Assembly: GCA_943789135.1 (NCBI GenBank)
Contig: CALSSY010000004.1
Span: 62,726-126,725, forward strand
DNA: 64,000 nt
Direction: 5' to 3'
DNA from: an uncultured Bacteroidia bacterium
GTDB taxonomy: Bacteria > Bacteroidota > Bacteroidia > NS11-12g > UBA955
The notes beneath the pieces are model-generated. The model was not told where the DNA came from. It saw only the letters and a program-made list of their open reading frames with translations, and searched no databases. Position numbers and translations under genes: made by a program. Below are positions 28,973 to 48,500 of this stretch, one piece after another; position 1 is the stretch's first letter; every line of letters starts with the position of its first letter.

Positions 28973-30985
28973 ATGAAATCGATAATAAAAATTGCCACAA
29001 TCACTAGTATGGGTTTGTTATCCGCCTTAGGATTCTCTGAACTTCAGAAAGAGAAGATCATCATTAAAAAGACCGATCTAATCCAAAAATCAAATTCTTC
29101 AGATTTTGAGGATTCAACTTCAAAGCAATTGGTTAACGTCAATAATGAAAAATCCATTCCCAGGATTTTTCATTTGAAAAAAAAGGTCAAGGACTCGACC
29201 AAATTACTTTACCTATTAGATACCACTGGAATTATTTGGGATTACGCTGAAAGTGATGATTTTGGCAATGTCGATTTCAACATAAAAAAACCGGGAACTT
29301 ACAGGGTTGCAAAAATGAACGGTGCAAAGGTAATTTGGTCAAAACGCGCATTATTTTCGGACGGAATCAATTCAATAAAAATCGGCACAAATGGGAAAGA
29401 AAGCATTCATACAATGCGCAATTTTTCTGGCTCCATTGCAAAAAGGCATTTAACCCTTGAGGATGGCGCAGCTCCTGCTCCAACTTCGCTATCTCGAGTT
29501 AAGGATATGTCTATTAGCCATTTTGCCGATGAAATTGCGATCGAAGATGCCGAAACCGAAGAAACTATGGTAAAAACTTCCGAGAAAATAGAAGTATCGA
29601 CTGTATCTGAAGAAAAAACATCAAAGAAAAGTGAAAAGGCCAAAGCAGGCGTAATGACTGCGGGTATTTGGAATGATTTAGAAAATTGGGACCGTTTTAA
29701 TAAAACCCTGCAAGATGAGAAAATACACGCCAATCAATGGAATTGGAAAATGGACAATCGAAGATATGCTATTGAAATTACCGATAAAAACGGCAATCCC
29801 GCTATTGATATAGCTTTACAACTACGGAACGAAGATGGAAGTATATTTTGGACGGCCAGAACTGATAATCGAGGATTTGCAGAACTATGGTATGCGCCCT
29901 ATTTAACAGAATTAAAAGATCTACCCCATGATTTTTTACTGTATGCTCAATATGGAGAAAGACCTTTTACCAAATTGGGTAAAGTTGGTTCTGACGGGGA
30001 TGTGCGGAACTCCTTTCGAATTAATTTCGAAAAATCAACTCCAAAAAATGTCGACATATGTTTTGTCGTCGATGCTACCGGATCCATGGGAGATGAAATC
30101 AAATACCTAAAAGAAGAATTAATGGAATTGATGCTAAGAAGTTCCGAAATGACACCTTGTTCTGATTTGAGATTATCTACGGTTTTTTACCGAGATAATC
30201 GGGATGCCTACACGGCCATTCATGCGCCTTTCACCTCAAGATTTGAAGACGCCGTTGATTTTGTTCAATCACAAGGTGCAGGTGGTGGTGGAGATTACCC
30301 AGAGGCCGTAGATGCTGGATTAGAAGAAGCCATTGAAAAGCTCGAATGGAGTAAAAATGCCCTTACACGTTTGTGCTTCTTGGTATTAGATGCTCCACCG
30401 CACAAAGAAAAAAAGAGTGAAATTGAGCGATTGACCAAAGAATACGCCGCACAAGGGATAAAAATAATTCCCATTGCAGCAAGTGGCATTGATAAACCAA
30501 CGGAGTTCTTGATGAAACGCATGGCTGCCATAACTTCAGGTGACTACATCTATATTACCGATCACTCTGGAGTTGGCAATTCTCACATCAAGCCATCTGG
30601 TGTTACAAGCGATATTGACCTTTTAAAAAATCAACTAGAAAAAGTAATTCGTAAATACACCGTTAATAAAGAATGTGACAAAGAACCTAAACCTTACAAT
30701 CCAGATCCTCAAACAATAATTTTTGGAAACGATCAAATTGTAATTCAATGTTTTCCAAATCCTGCAACATCTTTTATCAGTATTAATAGCAATACCAAGA
30801 TGAATAATGTACTCGTATATGGAATTAACGGACAATTGATTAAAAAGGTAGAAAGCATCAATACAGATACCTATCGTTTAGATGTTAGAGACATCGCAAA
30901 AGGCATGTATATTTTAAAAGCCAATACCGACAATCAAACCTTCACAACTAAAATATTAATCTTGAACTCTCAAGGGATTGATTGA
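28973..30985 (+). CDS. secreted von Willebrand factor A domain protein with a T9SS type-A C-terminal sorting domain
   Basis: signal peptide; MIDAS motif 'VVDATGSMGDEI'; C-terminal 'QCFPNPATSFISIN...' por-secretion tail. Confidence 0.75.
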   Translation: MKSIIKIATITSMGLLSALGFSELQKEKIIIKKTDLIQKSNSSDFEDSTSKQLVNVNNEKSIPRIFHLKKKVKDSTKLLYLLDTTGIIWDYAESDDFGNVDFNIKKPGTYRVAKMNGAKVIWSKRALFSDGINSIKIGTNGKESIHTMRNFSGSIAKRHLTLEDGAAPAPTSLSRVKDMSISHFADEIAIEDAETEETMVKTSEKIEVSTVSEEKTSKKSEKAKAGVMTAGIWNDLENWDRFNKTLQDEKIHANQWNWKMDNRRYAIEITDKNGNPAIDIALQLRNEDGSIFWTARTDNRGFAELWYAPYLTELKDLPHDFLLYAQYGERPFTKLGKVGSDGDVRNSFRINFEKSTPKNVDICFVVDATGSMGDEIKYLKEELMELMLRSSEMTPCSDLRLSTVFYRDNRDAYTAIHAPFTSRFEDAVDFVQSQGAGGGGDYPEAVDAGLEEAIEKLEWSKNALTRLCFLVLDAPPHKEKKSEIERLTKEYAAQGIKIIPIAASGIDKPTEFLMKRMAAITSGDYIYITDHSGVGNSHIKPSGVTSDIDLLKNQLEKVIRKYTVNKECDKEPKPYNPDPQTIIFGNDQIVIQCFPNPATSFISINSNTKMNNVLVYGINGQLIKKVESINTDTYRLDVRDIAKGMYILKANTDNQTFTTKILILNSQGID

Positions 30986-33404: not shown

Positions 33405-34061
33405 ATGTCTAAGATTATAGCTCCATCCATACTCTCTGCAGATTTTGCTCATTTAGGGCGCGACATTGAAATGATTAATAATTCAGATGCCGAATGGTTT
33501 CATGTCGACGTAATGGATGGCGTTTTTGTGCCCAATATTTCCTTTGGGTTTCCAGTGATGAAATCATTAAAAAAACATGCACAGAAAACGTTAGATGTGC
33601 ATTTGATGATTGTCCAACCGGAAAGATATATTCAAGATTTTGCGGATGCCGGAGCAGATGTATTAACGGTTCACTTAGAAGCCAGCACCCATTTACACAG
33701 AACGCTTCAACAAATTAAAAATGCAGGAATGAAAGCGGGCGTGGCTCTTAATCCACATACTTCTATTTATGCTTTAATGGATGTTTTAGAAGAAATAGAC
33801 TTGGTTTGTTTAATGAGTGTGAATCCTGGATTTGGGGGTCAGAAATTCATCCCACAAACCCTTAAGAAAACCCAAACCTTAAAAAATGAAATTTCACGAC
33901 TTGGTTGCAATACCTTGATTGAAATTGACGGAGGCGTGTCTTTACAGAATGCAGGTGATTTATTCCGCGCAGGCGCCGATGTTCTTGTGGCAGGAAACAC
34001 GGTATTTTCATCCGACAATCCGACTCAAACCATTACGGATTTATTGAATTGTTCAAAATAA
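33405..34061 (+). CDS. rpe: ribulose-phosphate 3-epimerase
   Basis: 'APSILSADF' start and 'HVDVMDG' motif. Confidence 0.9.
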   Translation: MSKIIAPSILSADFAHLGRDIEMINNSDAEWFHVDVMDGVFVPNISFGFPVMKSLKKHAQKTLDVHLMIVQPERYIQDFADAGADVLTVHLEASTHLHRTLQQIKNAGMKAGVALNPHTSIYALMDVLEEIDLVCLMSVNPGFGGQKFIPQTLKKTQTLKNEISRLGCNTLIEIDGGVSLQNAGDLFRAGADVLVAGNTVFSSDNPTQTITDLLNCSK

Positions 34062-36524
34062 ACCACCATACGGCTCGTTATTACTGCGTGAGTCGTTGGT
34101 TCATTGCCTTAATTGGCCTGCTTTATTTTCAAAACATTAGTGCTCAAAATGAGTATCGTGCAATCGTAGATGGCCATCCCCTCACCTTTGGCCCTATAGA
34201 AATCCGCGATGCATCAGGCAAGGTTTTGACATACACCGGAAAAAACTCAGAATTTGAAATACGTATACCCTATCCTTCTTTTTTGATTTTTGGATACATT
34301 GAAGATGAGAAGGTTTTCGGTCATTATGCTGATTTACGTGAAGGAATTGATACCATCACCTATGGTTTGGGTCTTGATCTCATTGGAACGGTGGAAATTT
34401 CTGCAGGATCGGACAATGCATTCATGGAGGAGATTCGACCAAGAGAATTGGCATTGAATGTTGGTGTTGGTTCCAATATTGAAAATATCATCAAAACTTT
34501 GGGTGGGGTTAGCAGTAGCAACGAACTTTCATCCCAATTTAGCGTTAGAGGCGGAAACTTTGATGAGAACCTTATTTATGTTAATGATATCGAAATTTAC
34601 CGGCCACAGCTTATTCAAAACGGACAACAAGAAGGATTGAGTTTTATCAACCCTGCTATGGTTGATAGAATCAAATTCAGCGCAGGTGGTTTTGCCGCAC
34701 AATACGGAGATAAAATGAGTTCTGTATTGGATGTGGCTTATGTAAGACCTGACTCAACTCGGTTTCAAGCAACCTTGGGTACCATGTTGAATTCAGCAAG
34801 TTTAGAAGGATCAAAAGGATCCGTATCTGGCATTTTCAGTTTTAGGCATTTTACCAATAGTTTATTGACCAGCACATTGAATACGGATGGCACGTATAAT
34901 ATGAACTTTGCGGATGTTCAATCCTTCATTACTTGGGAAATCAATCGCAATTGGTCTTTAGACTTTTTGGGGAACTACGCTAGAAATGCATTTCAGTTGC
35001 GCCCTGAAAGTCGTACTACGGAATTCGGAACCATTCAAGCCGCCTATCAATTGAACGTGTATATGGCGGGACAAGAAAACCTAAACTATGAATATCAGCT
35101 GGGAGCCTTAACCCTAAATTATAGACCAAGTTTATGGGCTAAATACAAATGGATTACCAGTGTTACCTCTATTAATGAAGAAGAATATTTCGATATTCAA
35201 GGTGCCTATAGCCTCAGTGAACTCGATAGAGATCTTGGATCGAGTAATCTAGGAAAACCCGTTCGTACCTTAGGATATGGCTATTACTTGGATCACGGCC
35301 GAAATCGAATGCAATCTCGCATTTTGAATTTTTCCCATTTAGGGGAACTAGGAAAAAAAACCTCTCGTACTCAGGTAAAATACGGAATTAGATTCAATAA
35401 AGAAATTATTGACGATCGTTATTACGAGTGGCTTTATATGGATAGTGCTGACTACAATATTGCCCCATGGAGTAGCAGTATCGATAGCATTGTTTTAGAT
35501 GATGTAGTTCGTGCTAATAATTCTATCAGCAGAAATCGTCTGAGTAGTTATATTCAAGCCAAACAAATTCTGGATCGCCAAAAAAACTTTTGGATGGTAG
35601 CAGGAATACGTCAAAGTTGGGAAAGTATCAGTAAACAATGGCTTTGGATGCCCCGATTGGCTTTTTTCTATGAACCGCATAAGAATTACAATCTAAGAGC
35701 ACCAGATAGTCTAAAGAGAACTCCTAGTACATACAGGTTGGCAGTAGGAGCCTATCATCAAGCGCCCTTTTACCGGGAAATGCGTAATTTCAACGGAGCG
35801 TTAAACTTGAATTTGAAGGCTCAAGAATCGTGGCATGTTGTTTTAGGTATGGATAAAATAGTAACCCTTTGGGGTAAAAAATTCAAATACTCAACCGAAG
35901 CCTATTTCAAGCAATTGAATAATTTAGATCCGTATTTATACGATAATATTCGAATACGTTATTATGCAAACAATGCATCTAATGGATATGCTATTGGTTT
36001 TGATAACAGGCTATATGGCCAATTTAATAAAGGGTTAGAAAGCTGGTTTACGTTGAGCTTACTTCAGAGTAAGGAAAGAATTTCATACACAGATGAAAAT
36101 GGAATTGCACAAACAAGCGATTGGTTGCGAAGGCCAACAGATAGGCGCTTTGAATTTTGCTGCAATTTTCCAAGACCGTCTTCCTCAAAACCCAAGTGTT
36201 CGCGTAAATTTAACTTTAAATATTGGCACAGCGGTACCCTATTATTTGGATGGAGATGCGAGATATTCGAATACACCAAGCCTTGTTCCGGCGTATCGCA
36301 GGGTTGATATTGGATTTAGTAAGGTTTTTCGAAAGAATGGAGACAAGCCTAATAAAGCAAAATGGGTTAAAGAATCGTGGGTAAGTCTTGACATATTCAA
36401 CCTGTTAGACATCAATAACGTCATTGCATACAGCTGGGTAAAAGACCTCAATAATGCACGGTATGGCGTTCCCGAATATCTAACAGGTAGAATGTTGAAT
36501 TTACGTTGGTTCTTAGCTTTTTAA
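34049..36524 (+). CDS. TonB-dependent outer-membrane receptor, interrupted by one frameshift near 36140-36160 (ORFs 34049-36307 and 36093-36524)
   Basis: plug-domain motif 'FSAGGFAAQYGDKMSSVLDV'; the barrel terminates in '...NLRWFLAF' (C-terminal Phe) in the second frame. Confidence 0.7.
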
Positions 36525-36525
36525 C

Positions 36526-39500
36526 TTAGTTTGGAGTTTCCTCTTTAGTTGAAGTTGCCTCAGTTAATTTCGTTTCACAATCTTTTAGTTGACCTTTCAA
36601 CGTGCTGATCTCAGCATTCAATTTTGAAATTTCAGCGTTGTTCGTTTTAATGATCTCTCCTAATTTACCCATATCTTCATCCATTGAAATGATTTGACGC
36701 TTCAAATCTTCATATTTAGAATCTGCCAGATTTTTTGCCTTTTCAGTCTCTGCTAATTTTGCCTCTATTTCAGATAACTTTTTGGCACATTTATCCGAAA
36801 TCAAGGTACAACCGCTGATTTGATTGTCCTTTTTCTTAATTTCCTCTTTTAGTCTATTGATTTCAGCTGTTAATTCTGCAGAATTGTCACCAGCGGCAAG
36901 CTTTATTTCCAATTCTGAGGCACGAGCCTCTAATTCAGATACCTTTTTAGTCAACTCATCGTTTTTCGCTTTTAATGTTAAGCAAGATGTATTCTGTTGC
37001 TTGAGTTCTTCAACTTGAGAAGCCAACTTCGCTTTTTCAACTTCTAGAGCTTTAATTTTTGCCTCAGCCGCGCTCAAAGCCGCTTTGGATTTTGCTAATT
37101 CCGATTCACATTCTTTACAATCAGAACCAGTTGCTATCTTTTCCTCTAGAATGCTAATTTTAGATTTTAATTTTGAGATTTCATCTTGTAGGGGTTTTGG
37201 ATCTACCAATGATGCTTTCTCTTTTTGACAAATAGCAAGGGCCGCCTTTAATTTTTCTAATTCCGCTTTTATAGGCTCGCAATCGATTGTAGATGCTTTT
37301 TCTTTTTCTAAGACTTCAATTTTTGCTTTTAGCTTGGTGATTTCGTCGGTGTAAACGCTTATTTCACTATTCGATTTTTTTGCCTCTTCTAAAGCGATCT
37401 CTACTTTATTTTTTTCTTCAACCAAATTGGATTGCTCCGATTTGAGTTTAGAAATTTCCGCTTCTAAAGTTGAAATTTTAGACTTGTATGGTGTGCAATC
37501 TTCTTTAGATGCTTTCAATTTTACAATCTCAGCTTCTAACGCAGCAATTTTTGTTTTGTATGGCGTACAATCTTCGCTTATTGCAATTGAAGCGTTTATT
37601 TTGGCCTTTAAGGTTTCCACTTCTTTTTCTAAATCCGCAATCTTCACTTTTAATGGAGCGCAGTCTTCTTTTGAACTTTCTGATGCCGATAACTTTGATT
37701 TAACGGATGCTAGTTCTGCTTCTAGTGTTGAGATTTTATTTTTATACGGAGTGCAATCTTCTTTGGCTTTTAATGCTGATGCGAGTTGAACTTTTACAGC
37801 CGCAAGCTCCGCTTCTAATTCTGCTGACTTCACCTTATAAGGAGTACAATCCTCAACAGGATCTTTGGTCATATCAATATCAGCAGACTTACGTAATTTC
37901 TCATTTTCCAACTTCAACGCGGCTATTTGTGCATTGAGTGTGGCAATTTCAGCTTTCTGTTTTACTTGATTCTCATCACAAATTTGCTTTTCTCTGGAAA
38001 GTGCATCCAAAGCATCTTTGCATTTTTGAGCTTGATTTTTTGCCTCTGCAGCCTCTATGGCGGCATCTTTTGCCTTTTTCTCAGAAGCACTAGCCTCTAT
38101 TTGCGCTTTTTTTGTTTTAGCCTTTTCCGTTTCTAATTCCAAGGCAATTTGTGCATTTTTCTGAGTTTCTTCCTTCCATTTCTTTTCTAATTCCGCAATT
38201 TTGTCATCACAAGGTTGTTTTATGGCCTCTCCAGACAGTCTATCTACTTGATCCTTTAATATCTTGTTTTCTCCCTCAACTTCGGATTTTGCTTTTTTCA
38301 ATAACGCAATTTCGGCCTGCAATTTATCTAGGTAATCCTGCAAATTTTTCTTCTCCTCATCACACTTCTTTTGAAGCGCTATGTTTGATTTTTTTGCTTC
38401 ATCCAATTCAAGAACAACCTTGTTTCGAATGCTTTTAATCAATTCAATTTCAGCCTTTAATTTATTTAATTCTGGTGTGCAATCAATAGTAACCGTATCT
38501 ACTTTGGGTAGGCTAGGATTTTTTTCTTTCGCCAAATTTATCAATCTCTGACGCTCTTCTTCCCATTGCTTTTCTTTTAGAGCGATTTCGGCGTTTTTCT
38601 TTTTAATTTCGGATTCCAGCGTTTGTTGGGATTTTTTACATTTTTCACTTTCTAATTTTAGAATTCCCAAACGATCCGTGCATTCTTTTTGTGCTTTTTC
38701 TGCTTCTTGACGCAATGTTATTATGGATTTCTCTTTTTCGTCAAGTTCCTTTTTTAACTTATCATTTTCTGCCTCCAAAGCAATTTCAGAATCTCCTTTC
38801 TCTTCATCGCGAATCGTGGTCGTTTCTTTTTTCTTTTCAATAATCGTATCACGCTCAATTTTTACGATTCGAATCTGCTGGGTATCGCGCTCAATCAGTG
38901 TGTCGTAAAATGTTTCTTTTTGCAAATAAGAATAACGTTTCGTGCGTTTGTCACACCCACCAATTTTAGATCGAACTCCAAAATAGAAACTTCCTCCTGA
39001 ATAACTCTCATTTTGAACATATTGACTTAAACCAAGTAGATTATCTGTACCAATAATCACAGGGCCGATACGTCCATAAACACCCATATGTAAATCGGTA
39101 TAGTCATTTGCAACGGTAATAGGAAAGCCGTACTCTAATTGTTCGCTTTGCCATCTGGGTGTAATATTAAAATAAGAAGCTCTTCTCAAACCCACGGAAT
39201 TACGGCGTTTCAAATTCTGGGTCCAGTACGCCCCAATATGAATGTGTCCATTAAGGTTTTGGTCAAATTGCAAATTAAATGCCATGGGTGTGGTACTTAT
39301 AATATCATCATTCTCCACAGCACCTAAAACAGAAAAAAGACGATTATCAAGATCATTAAGTCTGTCATCGCCGGAATTTTGAGCACTTTGAATGATTTTT
39401 GGATCGATTACCCAATTATTATTAGCCATAGATACGATTTCCGAACCCTGTCCCCAATAACTGAGAAAGCCTATATCCGTAAAACTTGCCCCAATTTTCC

Positions 39501-40416
39501 AATTGTATTGTTGTGAAATTTCGCGATCACAAAAAGAGGAATTTAGCTTGGGCTTTCCTCCGGATGGTCTATTTTCATATACAATACCCAAATCAATTCC
39601 CGTTCCCGCACCCTCAATAAAATCGAAACTCATTCCTAGAGGTCGGTTTAATGTATTCATAGAACCATAAGAACTTCTATATAGTCTCCCGTTAAATTGG
39701 TTGATATCGATCGACTTAGCATCTTGTGAGATATTAAAATTTAGATTGTCGCTTCCTAAATGAGCCATTCCCATTCCTATCAATAATTTAGCGGTTACAC
39801 CCCATTTCCAAACATGAATATCATCGGTTTGAGCTATTCCAGCTATATTCATGAACCATTCTTGATATTTTTCTGTGTTAATTGAAAATTCATTTTGATT
39901 TATAGTTTTTCCAGCAAGTTTATTGATTTCAGGAAGCCCATATCGCAAAATACCACCCATTTCACCATTAACTCCGTTTACCGAAAATCCAGAAACCTCT
40001 TTAACTCCAAAACCAAAGGTGCCTACTTCATCAATAGGAATGAATATGGATGGACCATTAACTTCAGACAGATAATTCAATTTAAAGTCGACAGCATTGT
40101 TAAGGGGCAGCCAATTCTGTTGAAATGCCAGAGATCCATTAATATCCGCGTATTGATCCGGATAACTTTCATTTATCCAAGCGCCCAATCGAAAAGGAGC
40201 CGCATAAACCATAAAATTATTTTCAAGCGAAACTGAAGCTCCCCACCAATTTATGTAAGCTCTATTTGACGGATTTGTTCTAGAAAGAGCTGGATTTAAA
40301 CTGTAAGAATAAGGACTGTTGTAATCACCGACCACCAAACCCATGGCATGTTGAGATTTTAAAGGCGAAGCACTTAAAACTAAATAAGTTAAAAATATTG
40401 AGAGAATTCGTTTCAT
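36526..40416 (-). CDS. 1296-aa protein. The N-terminal ~470 aa are an outer-membrane beta-barrel-like domain (possibly PorP/SprF-like), followed by an ~800-aa coiled coil built from tandem Cys-containing repeats '(E)DCTPYKxKI..LEAE'
   Basis: signal peptide; aromatic/Gly-rich alternating N-domain; heptad-rich Lys/Glu/Ala region with at least 9 repeat units each starting DC(T/E/K)P. Confidence 0.6.
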   Translation of the reverse strand: MKRILSIFLTYLVLSASPLKSQHAMGLVVGDYNSPYSYSLNPALSRTNPSNRAYINWWGASVSLENNFMVYAAPFRLGAWINESYPDQYADINGSLAFQQNWLPLNNAVDFKLNYLSEVNGPSIFIPIDEVGTFGFGVKEVSGFSVNGVNGEMGGILRYGLPEINKLAGKTINQNEFSINTEKYQEWFMNIAGIAQTDDIHVWKWGVTAKLLIGMGMAHLGSDNLNFNISQDAKSIDINQFNGRLYRSSYGSMNTLNRPLGMSFDFIEGAGTGIDLGIVYENRPSGGKPKLNSSFCDREISQQYNWKIGASFTDIGFLSYWGQGSEIVSMANNNWVIDPKIIQSAQNSGDDRLNDLDNRLFSVLGAVENDDIISTTPMAFNLQFDQNLNGHIHIGAYWTQNLKRRNSVGLRRASYFNITPRWQSEQLEYGFPITVANDYTDLHMGVYGRIGPVIIGTDNLLGLSQYVQNESYSGGSFYFGVRSKIGGCDKRTKRYSYLQKETFYDTLIERDTQQIRIVKIERDTIIEKKKETTTIRDEEKGDSEIALEAENDKLKKELDEKEKSIITLRQEAEKAQKECTDRLGILKLESEKCKKSQQTLESEIKKKNAEIALKEKQWEEERQRLINLAKEKNPSLPKVDTVTIDCTPELNKLKAEIELIKSIRNKVVLELDEAKKSNIALQKKCDEEKKNLQDYLDKLQAEIALLKKAKSEVEGENKILKDQVDRLSGEAIKQPCDDKIAELEKKWKEETQKNAQIALELETEKAKTKKAQIEASASEKKAKDAAIEAAEAKNQAQKCKDALDALSREKQICDENQVKQKAEIATLNAQIAALKLENEKLRKSADIDMTKDPVEDCTPYKVKSAELEAELAAVKVQLASALKAKEDCTPYKNKISTLEAELASVKSKLSASESSKEDCAPLKVKIADLEKEVETLKAKINASIAISEDCTPYKTKIAALEAEIVKLKASKEDCTPYKSKISTLEAEISKLKSEQSNLVEEKNKVEIALEEAKKSNSEISVYTDEITKLKAKIEVLEKEKASTIDCEPIKAELEKLKAALAICQKEKASLVDPKPLQDEISKLKSKISILEEKIATGSDCKECESELAKSKAALSAAEAKIKALEVEKAKLASQVEELKQQNTSCLTLKAKNDELTKKVSELEARASELEIKLAAGDNSAELTAEINRLKEEIKKKDNQISGCTLISDKCAKKLSEIEAKLAETEKAKNLADSKYEDLKRQIISMDEDMGKLGEIIKTNNAEISKLNAEISTLKGQLKDCETKLTEATSTKEETPN
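37430..37880. repeat. imperfect tandem DNA repeats of about 75-95 bp inside the coiled-coil gene ('cttgtatggcgtacaatcttc' family)
   Basis: at least five recurring copies encode the EDCTPYK units; they also create the spurious plus-strand ORF 37427-37789 containing repeated 'LYGVQSSL'. Confidence 0.7.
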
Positions 40417-40587
40417 TATAATGTTGTTGTTATCACAAAAATAAGGCCAATTAATAAGTTAAACGTAACGACTGCCTTCCTTAATTGTAAAATTTCCAGA
40501 AAATAACGCATCCGTTTATCGGGTATTCAATTAGTTAAACGAAGTAACAAACCATAATTTCAGGAGCCCATACTACCTTTGTTTTGA

Positions 40588-42330
40588 ATGAAAACGTTTT
40601 TGAAATACTTCCTAACCTTCGTTATTGGGATTTTAGTTGGACTTGCTGGATTGGTGGTTATCGGCCTTCTTGTAATTGCCAGCGCCGACTTCTCAAAAGA
40701 GAAGCCCGAAACACCTTCTAATGGAATTCTTAAAATTCAACTGCCTGTAGACTTAAGCGAAAAAGGTTCTGAGGAATCTATAACAAAAATTATTGGAAAT
40801 ATTTCTGGTAACAATTCTATTTCATTGAATGAGTTACGTGAAAAAATCAAAGCCGCAGCTACCGACAGCCGCATAGTAGCCATAAGTTTGGACGCTGGTA
40901 TGTTCAGCGGCGGTTTAGCCAAAGCACAAGAAATACGCCAATGCATAGATTCCTTTCAAAAATCGGGTAAACCAGTTTGGTGTTACAGCGAAAATTATTC
41001 AGAGTTGGGATTTTATATAGCCAGCACCTGTGATAAGGTTTTTGCCAATCCAAAAGGCGTTTCTGAGTTCAATGGTTTTTCAAGCGGTATAGTTATGTAC
41101 AAAGGCATGCTGGACAAATTAGGAATTGATGTTCAGGTTTTTAAAGTTGGAAAATTCAAAGGTGCGGTAGAGCCCTATACCCAAGAAAAATTATCTGATA
41201 ACAACCGCGATCAAATAGAGGCCTATTTAGGAAGTTTGTTCAACAATCAATTGAATCAAATTGCATCTGATCGAGTACTAAACCGCGATTCATTGGAATC
41301 TTTCGCTCTTTATGGGAATTCCTATTTAATGGCCAATTGCATGAAAGCAGGACTCATAGATTCACTGACTTATTACGATCAGTTTGAATCTTTCCTCAAA
41401 TCAAAACATAAAGATTTTAAATGGGTTGAATCGAAAAATTATAATGGAAATGAATCAGAATACGAATATGTAGAAGATAAAATTGCAGTTGTATTTTTAG
41501 AGGGTGAGATAATTCCAGGTAGGTCCGAATCAGAGGGTCAAATTGCGAGTGATGATGTATGTAAGTTGTTACGTAAAATCAAGAATGACGATAACATTAA
41601 AGCCGTTGTATTGCGAATCAACAGCCCAGGTGGCAGCTCTGTAGCAAGCGATCTTATTGCACGTGAAATTTCTTTGATCAAAGAAAAGAAGCCGGTAATT
41701 GCCTCATTTAGTAATGTTGCTGCCTCCGGAGGATATTACATTGCCTGTTTAGCCGATAGTATATTCGCCGATAGAAATTCCATCACGGGTTCAATTGGAG
41801 TTTTTGCTTTAATTCCTAACACGGGTAAACTATATGGTGGAACATTGGGTTTGAATTATGAATCTGTCAATAGCGGTCCCCAATCTGAATTGTGGAGACC
41901 TGATAAACCACTATCAGAATCTCAAAAACGCATCATGCAAAAGATGGTAGATGGCGTGTATGAAGATTTCACTCAAATCGTTTCTAGAGGCAGGAATTTA
42001 GAAATCAACAGAGTAAAAGAAATTGCTGAAGGCAAAGTTTATTCGGGGGTTCAAGCCAAAGAAATTGGACTAATAGACGGATTCGGGGGGCTAGAATACA
42101 GCATTCAAGCTGCTGCAAAAAAAGCAAAAATAAAAGCTTACCGCATAAGTGAATATCCTAAAGATAAAGATCCGTTTGAACAATTATTCTCCGCTTTAGA
42201 AATGAATACCTATTTGCAATCGAATTTGCAAAAAAATCCAGTAGGAAAAGTTCTATTGAAAAGCACGGAACAGTGGAACTCTATTCAAGGAATTCAAATG
42301 CGAATACCTTGGTCGACCGATTACCAATAA
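40588..42330 (+). CDS. sppA: signal peptide peptidase SppA (67K type)
   Basis: two ClpP/crotonase-like S49 domains, N-terminal TM, 580 aa. Confidence 0.85.
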   Translation: MKTFLKYFLTFVIGILVGLAGLVVIGLLVIASADFSKEKPETPSNGILKIQLPVDLSEKGSEESITKIIGNISGNNSISLNELREKIKAAATDSRIVAISLDAGMFSGGLAKAQEIRQCIDSFQKSGKPVWCYSENYSELGFYIASTCDKVFANPKGVSEFNGFSSGIVMYKGMLDKLGIDVQVFKVGKFKGAVEPYTQEKLSDNNRDQIEAYLGSLFNNQLNQIASDRVLNRDSLESFALYGNSYLMANCMKAGLIDSLTYYDQFESFLKSKHKDFKWVESKNYNGNESEYEYVEDKIAVVFLEGEIIPGRSESEGQIASDDVCKLLRKIKNDDNIKAVVLRINSPGGSSVASDLIAREISLIKEKKPVIASFSNVAASGGYYIACLADSIFADRNSITGSIGVFALIPNTGKLYGGTLGLNYESVNSGPQSELWRPDKPLSESQKRIMQKMVDGVYEDFTQIVSRGRNLEINRVKEIAEGKVYSGVQAKEIGLIDGFGGLEYSIQAAAKKAKIKAYRISEYPKDKDPFEQLFSALEMNTYLQSNLQKNPVGKVLLKSTEQWNSIQGIQMRIPWSTDYQ

Positions 42331-42412: not shown

Positions 42413-43015
42413 TTGAAGGAAATCACCCTAAAGATACAGCATGTCGCGACTCAATTGTTTTTCCGTTCTGGGATAAAACAGGTCTCGATGGATGACCTAT
42501 CGAAAAAGCTTAAAATTTCAAAAAAGACCCTTTACCATTGTTTTGGTAATAAAAATGAATTGGTACGACAAACCGTTCAACAACATTTCGCCTACATAGA
42601 AACTAGACTTGATGAAATCAGTCACATGCACATTTCTGCGGTAGGACGCATGGTAAAAGCTGCATCCTTTGCGGTTGAAGAACTATCTAAAGTCAACCCC
42701 TCTATGATTCAAGATCTTCATAAATACCATCCTGAGGTACATGAAGAGTTATTGGTTTTGCGAAAAAAAACCATCAAAGAACTAATGATAAAAAACATCA
42801 TTGATGGTAGGCAACACGGATATTATCGTTTGGATTTCAATTACGAGTTAATCAGTGAATTATTCGCGCAACAAATCATATATATCACCGAAAATTGGGC
42901 TCAAAACAACGCCCAAGAAGCGGCTCAGGGAGTATTCGAATATGCCATTTATCATTTAAGAGGAATTTCTACTAACAAGGGAATCACAGAACTAAGCACA
43001 ATACAATTATCATGA
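42413..43015 (+). CDS. TetR/AcrR family transcriptional regulator
   Basis: N-terminal HTH 'VSMDDLSKKLKISKKTLYHCF'. Confidence 0.85.
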   Translation: MKEITLKIQHVATQLFFRSGIKQVSMDDLSKKLKISKKTLYHCFGNKNELVRQTVQQHFAYIETRLDEISHMHISAVGRMVKAASFAVEELSKVNPSMIQDLHKYHPEVHEELLVLRKKTIKELMIKNIIDGRQHGYYRLDFNYELISELFAQQIIYITENWAQNNAQEAAQGVFEYAIYHLRGISTNKGITELSTIQLS

Positions 43016-44415
43016 AAGTATATAAACGCATACTAATTGCTTGCGCCTTTTGGGCTAGTACAAACGTCCATTCGCAATCCTTGGACTCATCCAAGATTGT
43101 TGCGATAACGGGACAAACAGTAAAAGTTGGAATGAGTTTAAAAGAGGCTATTAATTATGCCCTTCAAAACAATCCTGAGCTCAAAAAATCAAAATTTGAT
43201 GTTTCAATCTCTAAGGAAACCGTTAAACAAACCGTTGCAATTGGATTGCCGCAAGTAACGGCATCTGGAGGTTACCAGCATTACACGCGAATCCCAGGGA
43301 ACTGGATTAAGAACTTCGCCCCTACTCCAGGAGCTCCAGAATATATCTTTTTGCAATTTCAGCAACAGATTAATAGTTCGGCCACATTAGGCGTTAATCA
43401 GTTAATCTTTGATGGTTCTTACTTAGTGGGGTTAAAAGCAACCAAACAATTTGTGGATATGAGCCGCTTTTTAGAAGCAAAAACTGAGTATGATGTTCAG
43501 GTTAATGTTTCTAAAGCTTATTTAATGGTTGCAAGCACACGCATGAATATCGCTTTACTTGAAAGTAATATATCCGTTTTGGAAAAAAGCACTTCAGATG
43601 TAAAAGCATTATTTGAAGAAGGATTTTCTGAAGAATTGGATTATAAAAGACTTCAATTATCTCTGAACAACTTGAAAGTTCAAAAGCAGAAGTTAGAGAA
43701 TACAGTTGATATGCTCATGAATGTTTTGAAATTGCAAATGGGCATGGATTTAACGGAAACGCTTGAATTAAGTGATGACATCGAGAGTATAGATTCTTAT
43801 ATAAGAATGAGCGACATTGCTAATTCAAGTAGTTGGTCTCCAAGTCTAAGACCTGAATTTCAAGTATTGAATCAAGCAATTACACTCGGTAAATTAGATA
43901 AAAAGCGCTACCAAATGGGGTTTCTCCCCAAACTTGTAGGATTCTACCAACATCAGCAAATGACGATGAGACCTGAATTCAATTTCTTTGAAAGCAATCT
44001 TACTCCTAATAACAATTGGATTCCTTCAGATCTATTTGGATTACAAGTTCAATGGACACTATTCGATGGATTAAATGCGCAATCAAAAATCCGAGAAGTG
44101 CAATATAAAATTGACAAAGCTGAGGTGGATTTAAAATCATTTGAAAATGCGGCTTCTATGGAATGGAAAAATGCCCAAAACACTTACAATGTCCAGCTAC
44201 AACAAGCTGCATTGCAAAAGGAAAACATGGATCTAGCTCAAGACATTTACAATAAAACTCAGATTAAATTCCAAGAAGGTGTTGGGAGTACCCTTGAAAT
44301 GACACAAGCCGAATCGGAATTAAAAAATGCCCAAGTAAACTATTTAAACGCAGTTTACGATTTAGTACTTGCAAAAATTGATTATCACAAAGCCATTGGA
44401 AAACCACTTAACTAA
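43012..44415 (+). CDS. TolC-family outer-membrane efflux protein
   Basis: signal peptide; two OEP repeats. Confidence 0.85.
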   Translation: MKVYKRILIACAFWASTNVHSQSLDSSKIVAITGQTVKVGMSLKEAINYALQNNPELKKSKFDVSISKETVKQTVAIGLPQVTASGGYQHYTRIPGNWIKNFAPTPGAPEYIFLQFQQQINSSATLGVNQLIFDGSYLVGLKATKQFVDMSRFLEAKTEYDVQVNVSKAYLMVASTRMNIALLESNISVLEKSTSDVKALFEEGFSEELDYKRLQLSLNNLKVQKQKLENTVDMLMNVLKLQMGMDLTETLELSDDIESIDSYIRMSDIANSSSWSPSLRPEFQVLNQAITLGKLDKKRYQMGFLPKLVGFYQHQQMTMRPEFNFFESNLTPNNNWIPSDLFGLQVQWTLFDGLNAQSKIREVQYKIDKAEVDLKSFENAASMEWKNAQNTYNVQLQQAALQKENMDLAQDIYNKTQIKFQEGVGSTLEMTQAESELKNAQVNYLNAVYDLVLAKIDYHKAIGKPLN

Positions 44416-44416
44416 C

Positions 44417-45559
44417 ATGAAAAACGCCATATTTTTTAGCGCCGCTCTTAGCGTCGTTTTCTTAGCCTCATGTGGAGGAGCCGAAAAAACCACAGATGCA
44501 CAAGCGCAGGAGGAATTGAAAAACATTCAATCACAAATTGCTGAATTACAAAAAAAAGAACAAGCTTTATTAATGCAAATTGGGGGCAATGAATCTGCTC
44601 GAACAAAATTAGTTGAAACCCAAACGGTCGCATTAGCAACATTTACCAATGACCTAACGGTAGAAGGAATGGTTGATGCGCAAAATAGCACCATCGCTAC
44701 CTCTAAGGTGCCAGCAACAGTTACCGCAATTTTAGTGAAAGTGGGTCAACAAGTAAGTGCAGGTCAAGCATTAGCCAAACTGGATAATACATCCCTTGTG
44801 CAAAGCAAACGCGAATTGGAACAACAGTATGACTTTGCTAAAACTTTGTATGAAAAACAATTAAGACTTTGGAAAAAAGGCGTTGGCACTGAAGTTCAGT
44901 ATTTAAGCGCAAAGAATCAAATGGAAGCTCTTGCAAAAAGTTTGAATACGCTGAACTCAAACATCGACATGTACACAATTAAGTCTCCTATTGATGGAAG
45001 TATTGAAGCTATTGATATCAAGATTGGTCAAGTTGCCGCTCCTGGAATGCCGTACTTTAAAGTTGTGAATGTTTCGATGATTAAGGCTGTAGCAGAAGTA
45101 TCAGAAGCTTATGCAGGAAGTGTCCATCAAGGAGATGACGTTGAAATAATTTTCCCAGATTTAGAGAAATCCATCAAAAGTAAAATTGGATTTGCGTCTA
45201 AATTCATAGATCCCTTAAACCGCACGTTCAAAGTTGAAATACCATTAATTGGTTTAAAAGATATAAAACCGAATATGATTGCTCGTTTGAAAATCACTGA
45301 ATATGAAAAGAACAACACGATTGTCGTGCCTTCTAATTGTGTTCAAGTAACAGAAAATGAAGCTTTTGTTATGGTTGCAAAAGAGATCGAAGGAAAAGTA
45401 GTGGCTCAAAAACAAATAGTGAAATTAGGTCTAGCCAATAAGAACTCAACAGAAGTTACAGAAGGTTTAGAAATTGGTGAAAATCTGATTATTAATGGAT
45501 TCCAGGAATTAGCCGAAGGACAAGTTTTGACAATAAAAAAGGCAACTGACAATGGCTAA
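44417..45559 (+). CDS. efflux RND periplasmic adaptor (membrane fusion protein) lipoprotein; the likely start is 'MKNAIFF'
   Basis: lipobox 'LASCGG'; HlyD/biotin-lipoyl/beta-barrel domains. Confidence 0.85.
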   Translation: MKNAIFFSAALSVVFLASCGGAEKTTDAQAQEELKNIQSQIAELQKKEQALLMQIGGNESARTKLVETQTVALATFTNDLTVEGMVDAQNSTIATSKVPATVTAILVKVGQQVSAGQALAKLDNTSLVQSKRELEQQYDFAKTLYEKQLRLWKKGVGTEVQYLSAKNQMEALAKSLNTLNSNIDMYTIKSPIDGSIEAIDIKIGQVAAPGMPYFKVVNVSMIKAVAEVSEAYAGSVHQGDDVEIIFPDLEKSIKSKIGFASKFIDPLNRTFKVEIPLIGLKDIKPNMIARLKITEYEKNNTIVVPSNCVQVTENEAFVMVAKEIEGKVVAQKQIVKLGLANKNSTEVTEGLEIGENLIINGFQELAEGQVLTIKKATDNG

Positions 45560-48500
45560 ATTCAAAGAATTCAAACCCACAAGTTGGAGTATTGACAATC
45601 GGACAAGTATCTACATACTGACAATATTCATCAGTATTGCGGGTATCTTTTCCTATATCAAGCTTCCAAAAGAACAGTTTCCGGATATCGTTATCCCAAC
45701 AATCTACGTTCAGACCATTTATCCAGGTTCTGCCCCTAAGGATATCGAAAACTTAATTACCAAACCCATTGAAAAGAAAATCGGGTCTATCTCAGGTGTA
45801 AAGAAATTAAAAAGTCAATCTTTACAGGATTTCAGTATCATCACGGTTGAATTTGGAACTGATGTTGATGTGGCCGTTGCGAAAAGCAAGGTTAAAGACG
45901 AAGTAGACAAGGCCAAACAAGATTTACCTTCCGATTTAAGAAACGATCCAACCGTTCAAGAAGTAAACTTCAGTGATATGCCAATCCTGTATGTTAATAT
46001 TTCTGGTGATTACAGTCTACAAGATTTAAAGCGTTATGCCGAACTGGCAAAAGACAGAATTGAATCCTTGTCCAGTATCACTCGAGTAGACATGGTGGGT
46101 GCATTAGATCGTGAAATGCAGGTTAATTTAAACTTGACCAAGATGATCGCTGCGGGCATTACGCTCGATGATGTTTCTAGGGCCATTCAATATGAAAATG
46201 CACGTATTTCCGGAGGAAACGTGGATATCGGCAATATGAAACGCTCCATTAGTGTTAGTGGTGAATTCAAAAATAAATTCGAACTTGAAAATTTAGTCAT
46301 ACGAGGTAATTTAGGCGCAACGCTCTATTTAAAAGACATTGCAGAAATCAAAGATGGATTCAAGGAAAAGGAAAGTTATGCGCGTTTAGAAGGAAAGAAT
46401 GTAATTACTTTAAATATCGTAAAGCGTGCAGGTGAAAACCTGATTGAAGCATCTGATAAATGCCGTGAAATTGTTGCCGAACTTAAAACCAACGGTCAAT
46501 ACCCAGAAAAATTAAATGTGGTATTTACCGGTGACCAAAGTACCAAAACAAGGACAACGGTTCACGACCTTATCAATACCATTATCATTGGTTTTATTTT
46601 GGTAACCCTCATTTTAATGTTTTTCATGGGTGCTACCAACGCCATCTTCGTTGGTCTTTCAGTTCCCCTCTCCTGCTTTGTTGCCTTTTTAATCATGCCA
46701 ACCATAGGGTTTAGCTTGAACTTCATTGTTTTGTTTTCATTTTTACTGGCTTTGGGAATTGTTGTTGACGACGCTATTGTTGTTGTTGAGAACACCCATA
46801 GAATATATCATGAAGAGAATATCAGCATAGTTAAAGCGGCCAAGAAAGCGGCAGGTGAAGTGTTCCTTCCCGTTTTTTCAGGAACTTTAACCACTTTAGC
46901 CCCATTTTTCCCTTTGGCATTCTGGCAAGGTGTCGTAGGTAAATTCATGTATTTCCTACCTGTAACCCTGATTATTACCCTTCTTGCTTCGTTATTGGTT
47001 GCTTACATAATCAATCCTGTTTTTGCTGTTGATTTTATGCAGAAAGACAGCAAGCCCGAAAAAGGAGCTTGGAAATCATCAAAATTTAGAAAAACGAGCA
47101 TTGTATTTGCTGTATTAACCCTTTTGGGATATGGAATAGGATTCGGAGTTGGTAATCTTATTTTGTTATTTTATCTGATATATGCTGTACATAAAGTTTG
47201 GTTAAAAGGTGTAATTTATCGCTTTCAAACACAAAGATGGCCAAAGGTTCAAAATGCATATAAAAACCTTATTGCATGGACCTTATCTGGAAAAAGATCC
47301 GCATTGATACTATTGTCTACCATTGGATTATTGATTTTTTCCTTTGTCATTACAGCAATCCGAAAACCAGGTGTAATTTTCTTCCCACAGGCAGATCCTA
47401 ACTTTACTTATGTGTATTTAACGCTTCCAGAAGGAACTAGCGCCAAACATACAGACAGCATTGTAAAAATTGCTGAAGAACGGGTATTTCAAATCCTTAA
47501 TACCAATCAAAACAGAGACTTGGTGGAAAGTGTGATATCCAACGTTGCTGTTGGAGCTACGGATCCCAATAGTGGTGATCGCTCCATTAAAAGTAATAAA
47601 GGAAAAATCACAGTAGCATTTACGGAATTTTCAGAACGAAACGGTAGAAGCACCCGTAAATTATTGGAAGATATCCGAGCGGGCTTAACCGATTTTGCCG
47701 GTGTGGAATTGGTAGTCGAGCAAGAAAGTAACGGGCCACCAGTAGGAAAAGCCATAAATATTGAAATTCGCGGTGATGAATTTGATATTTTGGTTAAAAC
47801 AGGTGCTGAATTAAAGCAATTCCTAGATGAAAAGAATATATCAGGTGTGGAAGAGTTGAAGAGTGACTTCATAAGCTCTAAACCAGAATTAATTGTTCAT
47901 ATTGACAGAGAACGCGCCAATCGATTTGGAATTAGCACCTCTCAAATCGGAATGGCATTAAGAAATTCTATTTTTGGTGCAGAGGCATCTAAATTCAAAG
48001 ATGCCAATGACGATTATCCCATTATGGTGCGCTTGGAAAAAGCAACGAGTAATGATCTGAATGAACTCCTCAACATGAGAATCACGTACCGTGATATGAT
48101 TTCAGGTGGTATGTTAAGACAAATTCCACTTTCTGCGGTTGCAGATGTGCGTTATAACAACACATTTGGAGGAATTAACCGTCTGAATCAAAAGCGTGTT
48201 ATTACATTATCGTCAAATGTACTTTCAGGATATGCGCCTAATGAAGTAGTTGCTAAGGTTACAGAAGCGATAAAACAATATGGACAACCAGAAGGATTAG
48301 AAATTGCCCTTACAGGAGAACAAGAGGAACAAGCAGAAACTGCAGCCTTCTTATCTACAGCTATGATGGCGGCAATTGCCTTAATTATTGTCATATTAGT
48401 TACCCAGTTCAATTCTATTTCTAAGCCGATAATTATTTTAAGTGAAGTTTTCTTCTCTGTGATTGGAGTGCTTTTAGGATTTGCCATTTTTGATATGGAT

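Follow-up and report, generated by a model that had tools for sequence, protein, structure and literature searches.

The window analysed here is a stretch of 64,000 nucleotides from an uncultured Bacteroidia bacterium, and the gene under study lies on its minus strand. The open reading frame at 36526..40416 encodes a protein of 1,296 aa from an ATG start and, as the sequence-only reading of this DNA had proposed, has a TonB-receptor-like gene convergent to it and sppA divergent from it. The features of this gene, referred to as the barrel–rod gene, and of its surroundings are as follows.

34049-36307, plus strand: Plug-domain TonB-receptor-like gene, convergent to the barrel–rod gene
36526..40416, minus strand: complete barrel–rod gene, 1,296 codons plus stop (open reading frame list and translation)
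36553..36744, minus strand: conserved distal tip, residues 1225-1288 (LKRQIISMDEDMGKLGEIIK...KDC1280), a candidate partner-binding end
36553..38799, minus strand: segmented coiled-coil tail, residues 540-1288 (AlphaFold model and heptad assignment)
37414..37857, minus strand: five tandem EDCTPYKxK...LEAE modules, residues 854-1001 (module HMM)
38800..38952, minus strand: flexible linker, residues 489-539 (pLDDT <50 for residues 490-544)
38953..40260, minus strand: DUF5723 beta-barrel, residues 53-488, its last third bracketed by the near-invariant Cys296 and Cys488
40261..40353, minus strand: N-terminal hatch/plug segment, residues 22-52 (short AlphaFold helices 25-28, 34-37 and 42-45)
40288..40296, minus strand: NPA motif, N41-P42-A43, a hallmark of the FadL-family hatch
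40354..40416, minus strand: signal peptide, residues 1-21 (sequence; pLDDT <50 for residues 11-22)
40436..40443, minus strand: TATTTTTG, candidate -7 promoter element by consensus match only, 20 nt upstream of the ATG
40588-42330, plus strand: sppA/Peptidase_S49 gene, divergent from the barrel–rod gene

The candidate promoter element TATTTTTG fits TAnnTTTG, which we take to be the Bacteroidota -7 consensus. A sigma-70 scan gave no signal above background, and neither Rfam nor tRNA models matched anywhere in the window. The gene order sppA / barrel–rod gene / Plug gene / rpe / folP / fumC was kept down to 32% identity; in distant homologues the sppA/Plug synteny was gone and the neighbours were bamA, nusA or nusG, and the OmpA and SPOR sister proteins of the DUF5723 family were found in yet other gene contexts. 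Synteny with sppA and the Plug gene belongs to a larger housekeeping gene-order block that is lost in distant homologues, and the neighbours support no role for the protein. The first impression that no operon context is available from which to borrow a function thus held, since no conserved partner was found across the loci compared.

Homology searches recovered 111 homologues, four with 92-99% identity and the others ranging down to 23%. The matches listed in two protein searches comprised at least about 150 clusters (90% identity), and Cys-rich coiled-coil tails occurred in ~35 of the best 150 representatives at 50% identity, with tail lengths that differed two-fold within the family. Wherever the source was named, the organism carried a MAG or "uncultured" label. 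The barrel–rod family is widespread and has never been studied. The first impression did not recognise the architecture as a characterised family; the barrel part belongs to DUF5723 (PF18990).

The predicted signal peptide consists of an MKR start followed by a hydrophobic core. Mature N-termini in Bacteroidota follow a "Q-rule", and the predicted mature N-terminus is Gln22, a residue shared by at least 90% of the 60 sequences aligned. The first Cys of the protein is residue 296 and the cleavage site carries no lipobox Cys, indicating that the protein is not a lipoprotein and that an Lpp-like reading fails. The DUF5723 HMM matched residues 61-458 (profile positions 20-376 of 376) and scored 92.6 bits (cut-off 26.8, E=5.4e-26), and the N-terminal ~490 aa are rich in Gly, Asn, Ser and aromatic residues. 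This score, above the Pfam gathering threshold, bears out the N-terminal outer-membrane barrel; the likeness to PorP/SprF proposed from "YSYSLNPAL" was not recovered, as neither Pfam nor NCBIfam returned PorP_SprF at E≤1. The FadL/PorV/BamG superfamily is characterised by a monomeric 14-stranded barrel, and the barrel here is predicted to adopt a FadL/TodX-type fold, with PorV and BamG as the nearest solved structures. At the sequence level it falls outside that superfamily, with no Pfam or NCBIfam match to FadL/Toluene_X or PorV HMMs at E≤1, and a PDB sequence search with the barrel found no match at E≤10. The superfamily's N-terminal hatch with a conserved NPA motif is present. Residues 31-60, with a mean identity of 85%, are conserved better than any other part of the protein, P42 was invariant, and N41 and A43 were conserved in at least 90% of the 60 sequences. 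The NPA motif of FadL has been described (PMC8407342), and the PDB holds FadL N33A, P34A and delta-NPA mutant entries. The NPA-bearing N-terminal segment probably forms a FadL-type hatch inside the barrel.

These features raise the question of whether the protein serves above all as a FadL-type channel that takes up hydrophobic compounds, in which the tail is an accessory that passes substrate to, or docks on, a periplasmic or inner-membrane partner, a role proposed for the helical C-terminal domains of Treponema pallidum FadL-like proteins (PMC8407342). Besides this precedent, the predicted FadL/TodX fold, the NPA motif (essential for FadL gating, and invariant at its proline), the hatch as the best-conserved region and the conserved distal tip of the tail all favour a channel. 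However, PorV and BamG share the fold and are not fatty-acid channels, even at E≤10 no PDB FadL was matched by sequence, a 750-residue rod with a predicted disulfide ladder far exceeds what a docking domain needs, and no transporter gene was consistently adjacent among the loci examined. We therefore regard a primary channel function as unlikely, although it is compatible with the rod model set out below. Quite improbable is a role as an envelope-machine accessory, with the barrel docked on BamA or SprA and its rod organising or spacing the machines, as BamG serves BAM and PorV serves the T9SS. PorV and BamG are the nearest solved folds, T9SS cargo genes exist in the genome, and uppS-bamA precedes the gene in one distant homologue; but a bamA neighbourhood occurred in only one of the seven loci examined, the PorV and FadL-family models gave no Pfam or NCBIfam match, and neither BamG nor PorV has such a tail.

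The barrel is followed by the flexible linker, which contains conserved RDT(I/V) motifs (D511-T512 and D523-T524-I525). The Asp and Thr of these motifs were near-invariant in the homologue alignment and invariant in the distant-subfamily alignment, and a sequon scan showed that D-T-I fits the Bacteroidota O-glycosylation sequon as a sequence match. Beyond the linker, the AlphaFold model of residues 480-1296 (pLDDT 69.5, pTM 0.30) divided the tail into 13 helices of 19-109 residues each (540-630, 647-730, 736-844, 858-886, 889-915, 920-945, 951-969, 977-1012, 1019-1040, 1047-1069, 1073-1095, 1101-1174 and 1180-1288); at a pTM of 0.30, the packing of these helices carries no weight. The tail is composed of 17.6% K, 15.2% E, 11.6% A, 10.6% L and 2.6% C. 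A simple purpose-written Viterbi scoring, which is crude and not a calibrated predictor, assigned a coiled-coil register to 100% of residues 540-1296 versus 0.6% of residues 1-490. Hence the ~800 aa of near-continuous heptads read from the sequence were recovered, in 13 segments and not as a single unbroken helix. The estimated length of the rod is ~100 nm. SMC, Rad50, MAD, crescentin, ATG16 and other coiled-coil models of Pfam and NCBIfam all scored far below their curated cut-offs; these matches are compositional, and the named coiled-coil families were rejected as the identity of the tail. A PDB sequence search with the tail found no match at E≤0.01.

Conservation along the tail is uneven. 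Identity to the query across homologues was ~50% in residues 1231-1290 versus 16-33% in most of the tail, and Q1241, L1277 and C1280 were invariant, so that the tip stands as a candidate binding end. The C-terminus itself is coiled coil and ends ...KDCETKLTEATSTKEETPN. No match to a T9SS sorting domain (Por_Secre_tail or CHU_C) was found there; the same models matched neighbouring genes, indicating that they work in this genome, and the protein does not qualify as T9SS cargo. A surface fibre or adhesin stalk, in which the C-terminal tail leaves the cell by way of its own barrel or next to it in the inverse-autotransporter style of intimin and invasin, would agree with the order of an N-terminal barrel and a C-terminal extension seen in type Ve secretion. 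Moreover, ~100 nm is easier to place outside the cell than inside, and trimeric autotransporter adhesins typically have coiled-coil stalks. We consider this export distinctly unlikely. The protein did not present the type Ve hallmarks (12-stranded intimin-type barrel, Ig-like or lectin passenger, often an N-terminal LysM). Nor is it a trimeric autotransporter adhesin, as its barrel lies at the N-terminus and the YadA-type anchor, head and stalk domains were all missing.

The most regular feature of the tail is its Cys-initiated modules. Five strong modules, (K/S/V)EDC(T/A)P(Y/L)KxK, are placed at Cys857, 888, 919, 950 and 974 (spacing 31, 31, 31 and 24; module lengths 31, 31, 31, 24 and 31 aa) with module-HMM E values of 1e-15 to 1e-18, and looser Cys-initiated variants were located at 646, 736, 1046, 1100, 1145 and 1203. 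The Cys motifs noticed earlier are real and lie where they had been placed, and 9 of the 12 AlphaFold helix breaks sit at a Cys. The family consensus retains EDCTPYK. At the DNA level, the module copies are 60-75% identical and TRF detected no tandem array of module size; this degree of identity indicates that the duplications are old, and recent slippage or an assembly artefact was rejected on the same ground. With Cys scored neutrally, all 20 tail Cys fell in heptad positions a/d, whereas 20 tail positions picked at random averaged 5.7 and never exceeded 15 in 100,000 draws, indicating that the core placement is not due to chance. Furthermore, an alignment of 29 homologues, the check on which the significance of these residues had been made to depend, showed that Cys was kept in ~70-100% of aligned sequences at 646, 685, 736, 813, 857, 919, 950, 974, 1100, 1210 and 1280.

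The heptad composition carries the signature of a parallel two-stranded coiled coil at the level of sequence: position a holds I31, L24, N8 and K8, d holds L47, g holds E38 and e holds K39, and 40 attractive versus 10 repulsive g-to-e' pairs were counted, a trend repeated in 15 homologues. An antiparallel homodimer was rejected, because the conserved Cys positions would pair without symmetry. The signature also bears on whether the tail folds back on itself, its 13 helices packing against one another as antiparallel bundles of the spectrin or hairpin kind. The tail would then be a compact or shorter domain in the periplasm, and its Cys would form disulfides within the chain or simply fill the core as small hydrophobic residues. 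The helices are separated by short hinges, and a folded tail would be easier to fit in the periplasm. In addition, although Foldseek found no match to the tail model at E≤0.001, the nearest, non-significant neighbours of the monomer were generic antiparallel hairpins (SH3BP5, the RipA N-domain and Smc arms); as noted, the packing in this model is without weight. By contrast, the Glu at g and Lys at e and the attractive g-to-e' (+5) pairs, at least 4:1, are what parallel in-register pairing predicts, while antiparallel packing would put like charges together. Odd Cys counts in many family members and the lack of palindromic spacing of the conserved Cys likewise argue against a fold-back, which we hold to be an improbable, though not negligible, arrangement.

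A further reading of the Cys is that stacked thiolates, together with the Asp/Glu of "EDC", bind soft metals in a two- or three-stranded coil, so that the rod is a periplasmic metal buffer or sensor. Designed coiled coils with a/d Cys (TRI and CoilSer peptides) bind Hg, Cd, As and Pb, and the conservation of the E-D-C triad is stricter than a coiled coil would demand. However, the periplasm is oxidising, Ile at a, Leu at d and Asn/Lys at a favour dimers and hence only two thiolates per layer, and no metal-resistance genes are linked, the adjacent RND pump beyond sppA having its own TetR regulator. Metal binding is thus highly improbable.

Taken together, we infer that the protein is an outer-membrane barrel carrying a periplasmic, disulfide-locked, parallel two-chain rod that acts as a structural scaffold or tether, a reading to which we assign a probability of roughly 0.45. 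In this model, the Sec signal peptide is followed by a FadL/PorV/BamG-fold DUF5723 barrel, with its NPA segment kept, in the outer membrane. The last strand of an even-stranded barrel ends at the periplasmic side in all cases; here too it would do so, and after the ~50-residue flexible linker the ~750 residues of heptad repeats would remain in the periplasm. The tail would pair with the identical tail of a second molecule in a parallel, in-register, two-stranded coiled coil of 13 helical segments, most opening with a Cys and then a Thr-Pro helix cap. Since all Cys occupy core a/d positions, each would face its own copy in the partner chain, and periplasmic oxidation may then produce a ladder of up to ~20 inter-chain disulfides, which this core placement and the odd Cys counts in the family favour. 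The outcome would be a covalently locked ~100 nm rod tied to two barrels, which could serve the envelope as a scaffold or tether and bind a partner through its conserved distal tip. Against this model, a ~100 nm rod has no obvious place in the periplasm. As the rod is several times the width of the periplasm and its length varies two-fold, it would most likely extend beneath the outer membrane, following its inner face, or zig-zag at its hinges. Moreover, the hatch and the E-D-C-T-P-Y-K motif are conserved so strongly that they probably do more than anchor and staple. The overall interpretation first given to this DNA survives in part: a barrel joined to a Cys-patterned coiled coil stands, and the PorP/SprF likeness does not.

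On a wider view, the rods may form an outer-membrane-anchored, disulfide-cross-linked, intermediate-filament-like skeleton of ~100 nm per unit beneath the outer membrane of uncultured Bacteroidota, although we think this unlikely. Such a skeleton would stiffen or shape the envelope or provide a track for envelope machines, and the FadL-type hatch might couple it to an extracellular signal or ligand. We know of no beta-barrel-anchored periplasmic coiled-coil cytoskeleton, and to our knowledge Bacteroidota have no Braun's lipoprotein; their envelope machines (BAM, T9SS and gliding) depart from the Escherichia coli textbook picture. If the rod is periplasmic, it would represent a new way to build a mechanical structure below an outer membrane, and if the disulfides form, a natural coiled-coil disulfide "ladder" of interest to protein design. 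The strict core-position rule for Cys makes dimer versus monomer a sharp and cheap prediction.

Among known systems, the DUF5723-TSP3-OmpA and DUF5723-SPOR fusions share the barrel family (E=5e-26), the NPA hatch and the barrel-end Cys, and their C-terminal extensions start at the same point as here. Their tails, however, are 130-370 aa long without a coiled coil, finish with a peptidoglycan-binding domain and have none of their Cys at heptad a/d, whereas the present tail is a coiled coil of 750-800 aa without a recognisable peptidoglycan-binding domain. FadL/TodX/TbuX, PorV (the T9SS shuttle) and BamG (a Bacteroidota BAM subunit) lack a long C-terminal coiled coil and show no detectable sequence similarity to the protein, which matched none of their Pfam or NCBIfam families. 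The T. pallidum FadL-like proteins likewise place a presumed periplasmic helical extension after a FadL-fold barrel, but in a different phylum and as a small three-helix TPR-like bundle with neither a 100-nm rod nor a Cys ladder (PMC8407342). OmpM/SlpA and Lpp also combine an outer-membrane anchor with a periplasmic homo-oligomeric coiled coil that ties or spaces the envelope. These are trimers; in OmpM and SlpA the coiled coil precedes the barrel, and in Lpp it is anchored by a lipid. They terminate in an SLH domain or a covalent peptidoglycan link, lack a Cys ladder and have a more or less constant length that matches the periplasm. An OmpM/SlpA-type tether was rejected here, as no SLH match was found and the domain order is reversed. 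The phage i-spanin Rz, likewise a periplasmic coiled coil, is a homodimer with homotypic inter-chain disulfides formed via the host Dsb system, but it has an inner-membrane anchor, ~150 aa, two Cys, a lysis function and no homology to the barrel–rod protein. Finally, the intermediate-filament-like crescentin and FilP are cytoplasmic, without a membrane barrel and not Cys-rich, and the Rod_CreS and Filament models gave the homologues 19-22 bits, far below Pfam cut-offs of 40-100; they are likewise segmented heptad rods broken by short linkers.

The gene for the barrel-rod protein, a DUF5723 barrel joined by a flexible linker to a segmented coiled-coil tail (rod), was recovered by ORF listing and translation as a single minus-strand ORF of 1,296 codons with an ATG start, and is a real gene. 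It lies in an ordinary Bacteroidota chromosome (~37% GC; dnaE, recF, recN, fumC, folP, rpe, lon and rseP in the window). The features concerned are as follows.

36526-40416, minus strand: barrel-rod gene
38800-38952, minus strand: linker of the barrel-rod protein (residues 489-539), with two near-invariant RDT(I/V/Q) motifs; beta-hairpin at low confidence in AlphaFold
34049-36307, plus strand: Plug-domain gene, 752 aa, convergent with the barrel-rod gene; Plug match E=3.8e-9
40588-42330, plus strand: sppA (Peptidase_S49 family), divergent from the barrel-rod gene; 171 bp between starts
42413-48956, plus strand: RND efflux operon (TetR, outer-membrane factor, membrane-fusion protein, RND permease), just past sppA; syntenic in relatives
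28973-30985, plus strand: type IX secretion system (T9SS) cargo gene, VWA-domain protein that ends in a Por_Secre_tail domain
20695-23181, minus strand: T9SS cargo gene, PKD-domain protein that ends in a CHU_C domain

The two cargo genes indicated that the organism has a T9SS. The 440-aa ORF at 50248-51570 (minus) had no match in Pfam or NCBIfam, and the 309-aa ORF at 49283-50212 (minus) had none in NCBIfam. A 285-aa ORF at 1435-2292 (minus) matched glycolate oxidase GlcD over its N-terminal half only (profile positions 1-234 of 413); the gene may be split or truncated, or it may continue in a second ORF.

The first search returned 111 homologues of the barrel-rod protein, four with 92-99% identity and the others down to 23%; the relatives with an organism named in the source were all metagenome-assembled genomes (labelled Bacteroidia, Flavobacteriales or Bacteroidota). 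The gene order sppA / barrel-rod gene / Plug gene / rpe / folP / fumC is kept down to 32% identity and is a housekeeping gene order, and more distant homologues adjoin bamA, nusG or nusA instead. One relative has the gene of a 1,902-aa CHU_C protein (type IX secretion) between sppA and the barrel-rod gene (locus L011, 2243-7951), so the divergent pairing is not obligatory. The sequence-only reading had named a convergent TonB-dependent receptor gene and a divergent sppA as flanks and had seen no operon context; both flanks were found, and no neighbour of the query or its homologues was informative as to a functional partner. The Plug neighbour, for which Plug was the sole match and no NCBIfam family was found, may be an atypical TonB-dependent receptor; in the homologous loci the Plug match is only weak. 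A 143-aa ORF at 36093-36524 (plus) is probably spurious; it overlaps the Plug gene's 3' end and takes up the convergent gap as far as the barrel-rod stop codon. At a second locus (L018, 3631-11023), the gene of the distant homologue P0136 is the next one downstream of uppS-bamA, with 826 bp free of called genes in between; this adjacency, seen at one locus only, is notable in that BamG is among the nearest folds. TATTTTTG, 20 nt upstream of the barrel-rod ATG, matches TAnnTTTG, the -7 promoter consensus of Bacteroidota, as a pattern only.

The proposed N-terminal outer-membrane barrel was borne out by Pfam, which assigned residues 61-458 to DUF5723 (PF18990; 92.6 bits vs. a cut-off of 26.8). 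PorP/SprF, FadL and PorV gave no match at E<=1 in Pfam or NCBIfam. The string YSYSLNPAL, previously read as faintly PorP/SprF-like, holds the NPA motif N41-P42-A43, and PorP/SprF identity was rejected on this FadL-type motif together with the missing match. Among 60 sequences P42 never varies, while conservation of N41 and A43 reaches at least 90%; residues 31-60 form the best-conserved block of the whole protein (85% mean identity). A conserved NPA in the hatch, essential for gating, is the hallmark of FadL (PMC8407342), and crystal entries exist for FadL N33A, P34A and delta-NPA mutants. On this motif the barrel most likely belongs to the FadL/PorV/BamG fold class. Such high conservation would also suit a FadL-type channel whose tail serves for docking, one of the rival readings. 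With no Cys in its signal peptide, the protein is not a lipoprotein; Gln22 is near-invariant, in keeping with the tendency of Bacteroidota proteins to begin with Gln after signal-peptide cleavage. Cys296 is conserved in 30 of 30 sequences, as is Cys488, the last residue of the barrel.

Residues 490-544 had pLDDT <50 in AlphaFold. The linker carries RDT(Q/I) twice, with D523-T524 near-invariant, and the alignment of a distant subfamily shows a corresponding RDTVxxxxRDTVY with D and T invariant. In a sequon scan, D-T-I and D-T-V fit the O-glycosylation sequon of Bacteroidota, D-(S/T)-(A/I/L/V/M/T). The sequon would be compatible with an extracytoplasmic site, periplasm and surface alike.

A simple heptad Viterbi script of our own placed 100% of residues 540-1296 in coiled-coil registers (0.6% of the barrel). 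The claim of ~800 aa of near-continuous heptads thus held for coverage, but not for continuity: there were 18 register shifts, and the AlphaFold model of residues 480-1296 (36 sequences; pLDDT 69.5; pTM 0.30) contained 13 separate helices of 19-109 residues. Their ~672 helical residues give an extended length of ~100 nm at 0.15 nm per residue. In this model, 9 of the 12 helix breaks coincide with Cys (646, 736, 857, 888, 919, 950, 974, 1046 and 1100) in the sequence (E/S/I)-D-C-(T/E)-P, where a Thr-Pro helix cap comes right after Cys. With a module HMM, five strong tandem modules were detected across residues 854-1001 (E 1e-15 to 1e-18), the remainder of the at least nine previously counted being only looser variants. 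The copies are 60-75% identical in DNA, indicating old duplications rather than slippage, and several EDCTPYKxK...LE modules are retained in the family consensus. The distal tip (residues 1225-1288) is conserved, with Q1241, L1277 and C1280 invariant. The tail matched nothing in the PDB by sequence or fold, a search with the tail alone found only DUF5723 fusions, and named coiled-coil families were rejected, every score being far under threshold.

All 20 Cys of the query tail (about 2.5%; ~1.6-3% in homologous tails) fall at heptad a or d, Cys having been scored zero at every position, compared with a mean of 5.7 and a maximum of 15 for 20 random tail positions (100,000 draws). The same holds for 267 of 295 tail Cys in 18 homologues and for distant representatives with barrels 27-31% identical to the query (e.g. 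20/21, 19/20, 20/21 and 14/14); DUF5723 proteins with TSP3-OmpA tails, the negative control, have none at a/d. Moreover, the cysteine positions proved conserved across 29 homologues, 11 tail columns keeping Cys in ~70-100% of aligned sequences.

By the rules of Harbury, Woolfson and Alber, a two-stranded parallel coiled coil is classically recognized by Ile at a combined with Leu at d, and by Asn or Lys at a. The tail has Ile 31, Leu 24, Asn 8 and Lys 8 at a, Leu 47 at d, Glu 38 at g and Lys 39 at e. Its g(i) to e'(i+5) pairs are attractive in 40 cases vs. 10 repulsive (~2:1 to 22:1 in 15 homologues), a pattern that a parallel in-register homodimer predicts; in antiparallel pairing, like charges would meet. 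Odd tail Cys counts in many homologues (9, 11, 13, 15, 17, 21 and 23) make complete intramolecular pairing impossible there, whereas in a parallel homodimer each Cys faces its own copy, so that parity and indels are irrelevant. Among the best-conserved Cys, each level holds one rather than a CxxC, an arrangement that suits a dimer better than a trimer. From the charge pattern, the odd counts and the single levels we infer a putative ladder of homotypic inter-chain disulfides.

Barrels with an even strand number end in the periplasm. Among 142 newly listed representatives of barrel relatives, 88 are barrel-only and ~30 have tails of 130-370 aa; 8 of 13 sampled short tails carry TSP3 repeats and/or an OmpA peptidoglycan-binding domain, and a ninth carries SPOR. 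Such domains must be periplasmic, and we regard these architectures as the decisive comparative evidence. Pfam detected no T9SS C-terminal domain or autotransporter-type passenger domain in the tail. The hatch probably fills the barrel lumen, and in T. pallidum a FadL-like barrel with a helical, presumed periplasmic C-terminal extension has been proposed (PMC8407342). We therefore consider the rod probably periplasmic, with a probability of roughly 0.7-0.75.

In the reading we favor, two chains would be stapled covalently into a hinged rod ~100 nm long and attached to two barrels. The rod would run along the outer membrane or zig-zag under it and serve as a scaffold or tether of the envelope structure, and the conserved tip may bind a partner. 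Tail lengths from 408 to 916 aa in the family argue against a fixed-length periplasm-spanning ruler. The scaffold reading leaves the strong conservation of the NPA hatch and of E-D-C-T-P-Y-K unexplained, and this keeps rivals alive: besides the FadL-type channel, the protein might be a BAM or T9SS accessory, or its Cys layers might bind metal.

The architecture had not been recognized as a characterized family, and the literature likewise yielded no description of a DUF5723 barrel with a coiled-coil rod; DUF5723 appears in passing only, in two papers, as a P. gingivalis vesicle protein in one and a Brachyspira barrel model in the other, and no mention of PF18990 was found. Lpp, OmpM/SlpA and DcaP share the principle of an outer-membrane anchor with a periplasmic homo-oligomeric coiled coil, the spanin Rz already has a periplasmic coiled coil locked by homotypic disulfides, and DUF5723-OmpA fusions already join this barrel to a periplasmic tail. 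The novelty lies in how these features combine: a barrel of probable FadL fold with a coiled coil C-terminal to it, a rod three to four times as long as the periplasm is wide, and a strict, conserved rule that places every Cys in the coiled-coil core.
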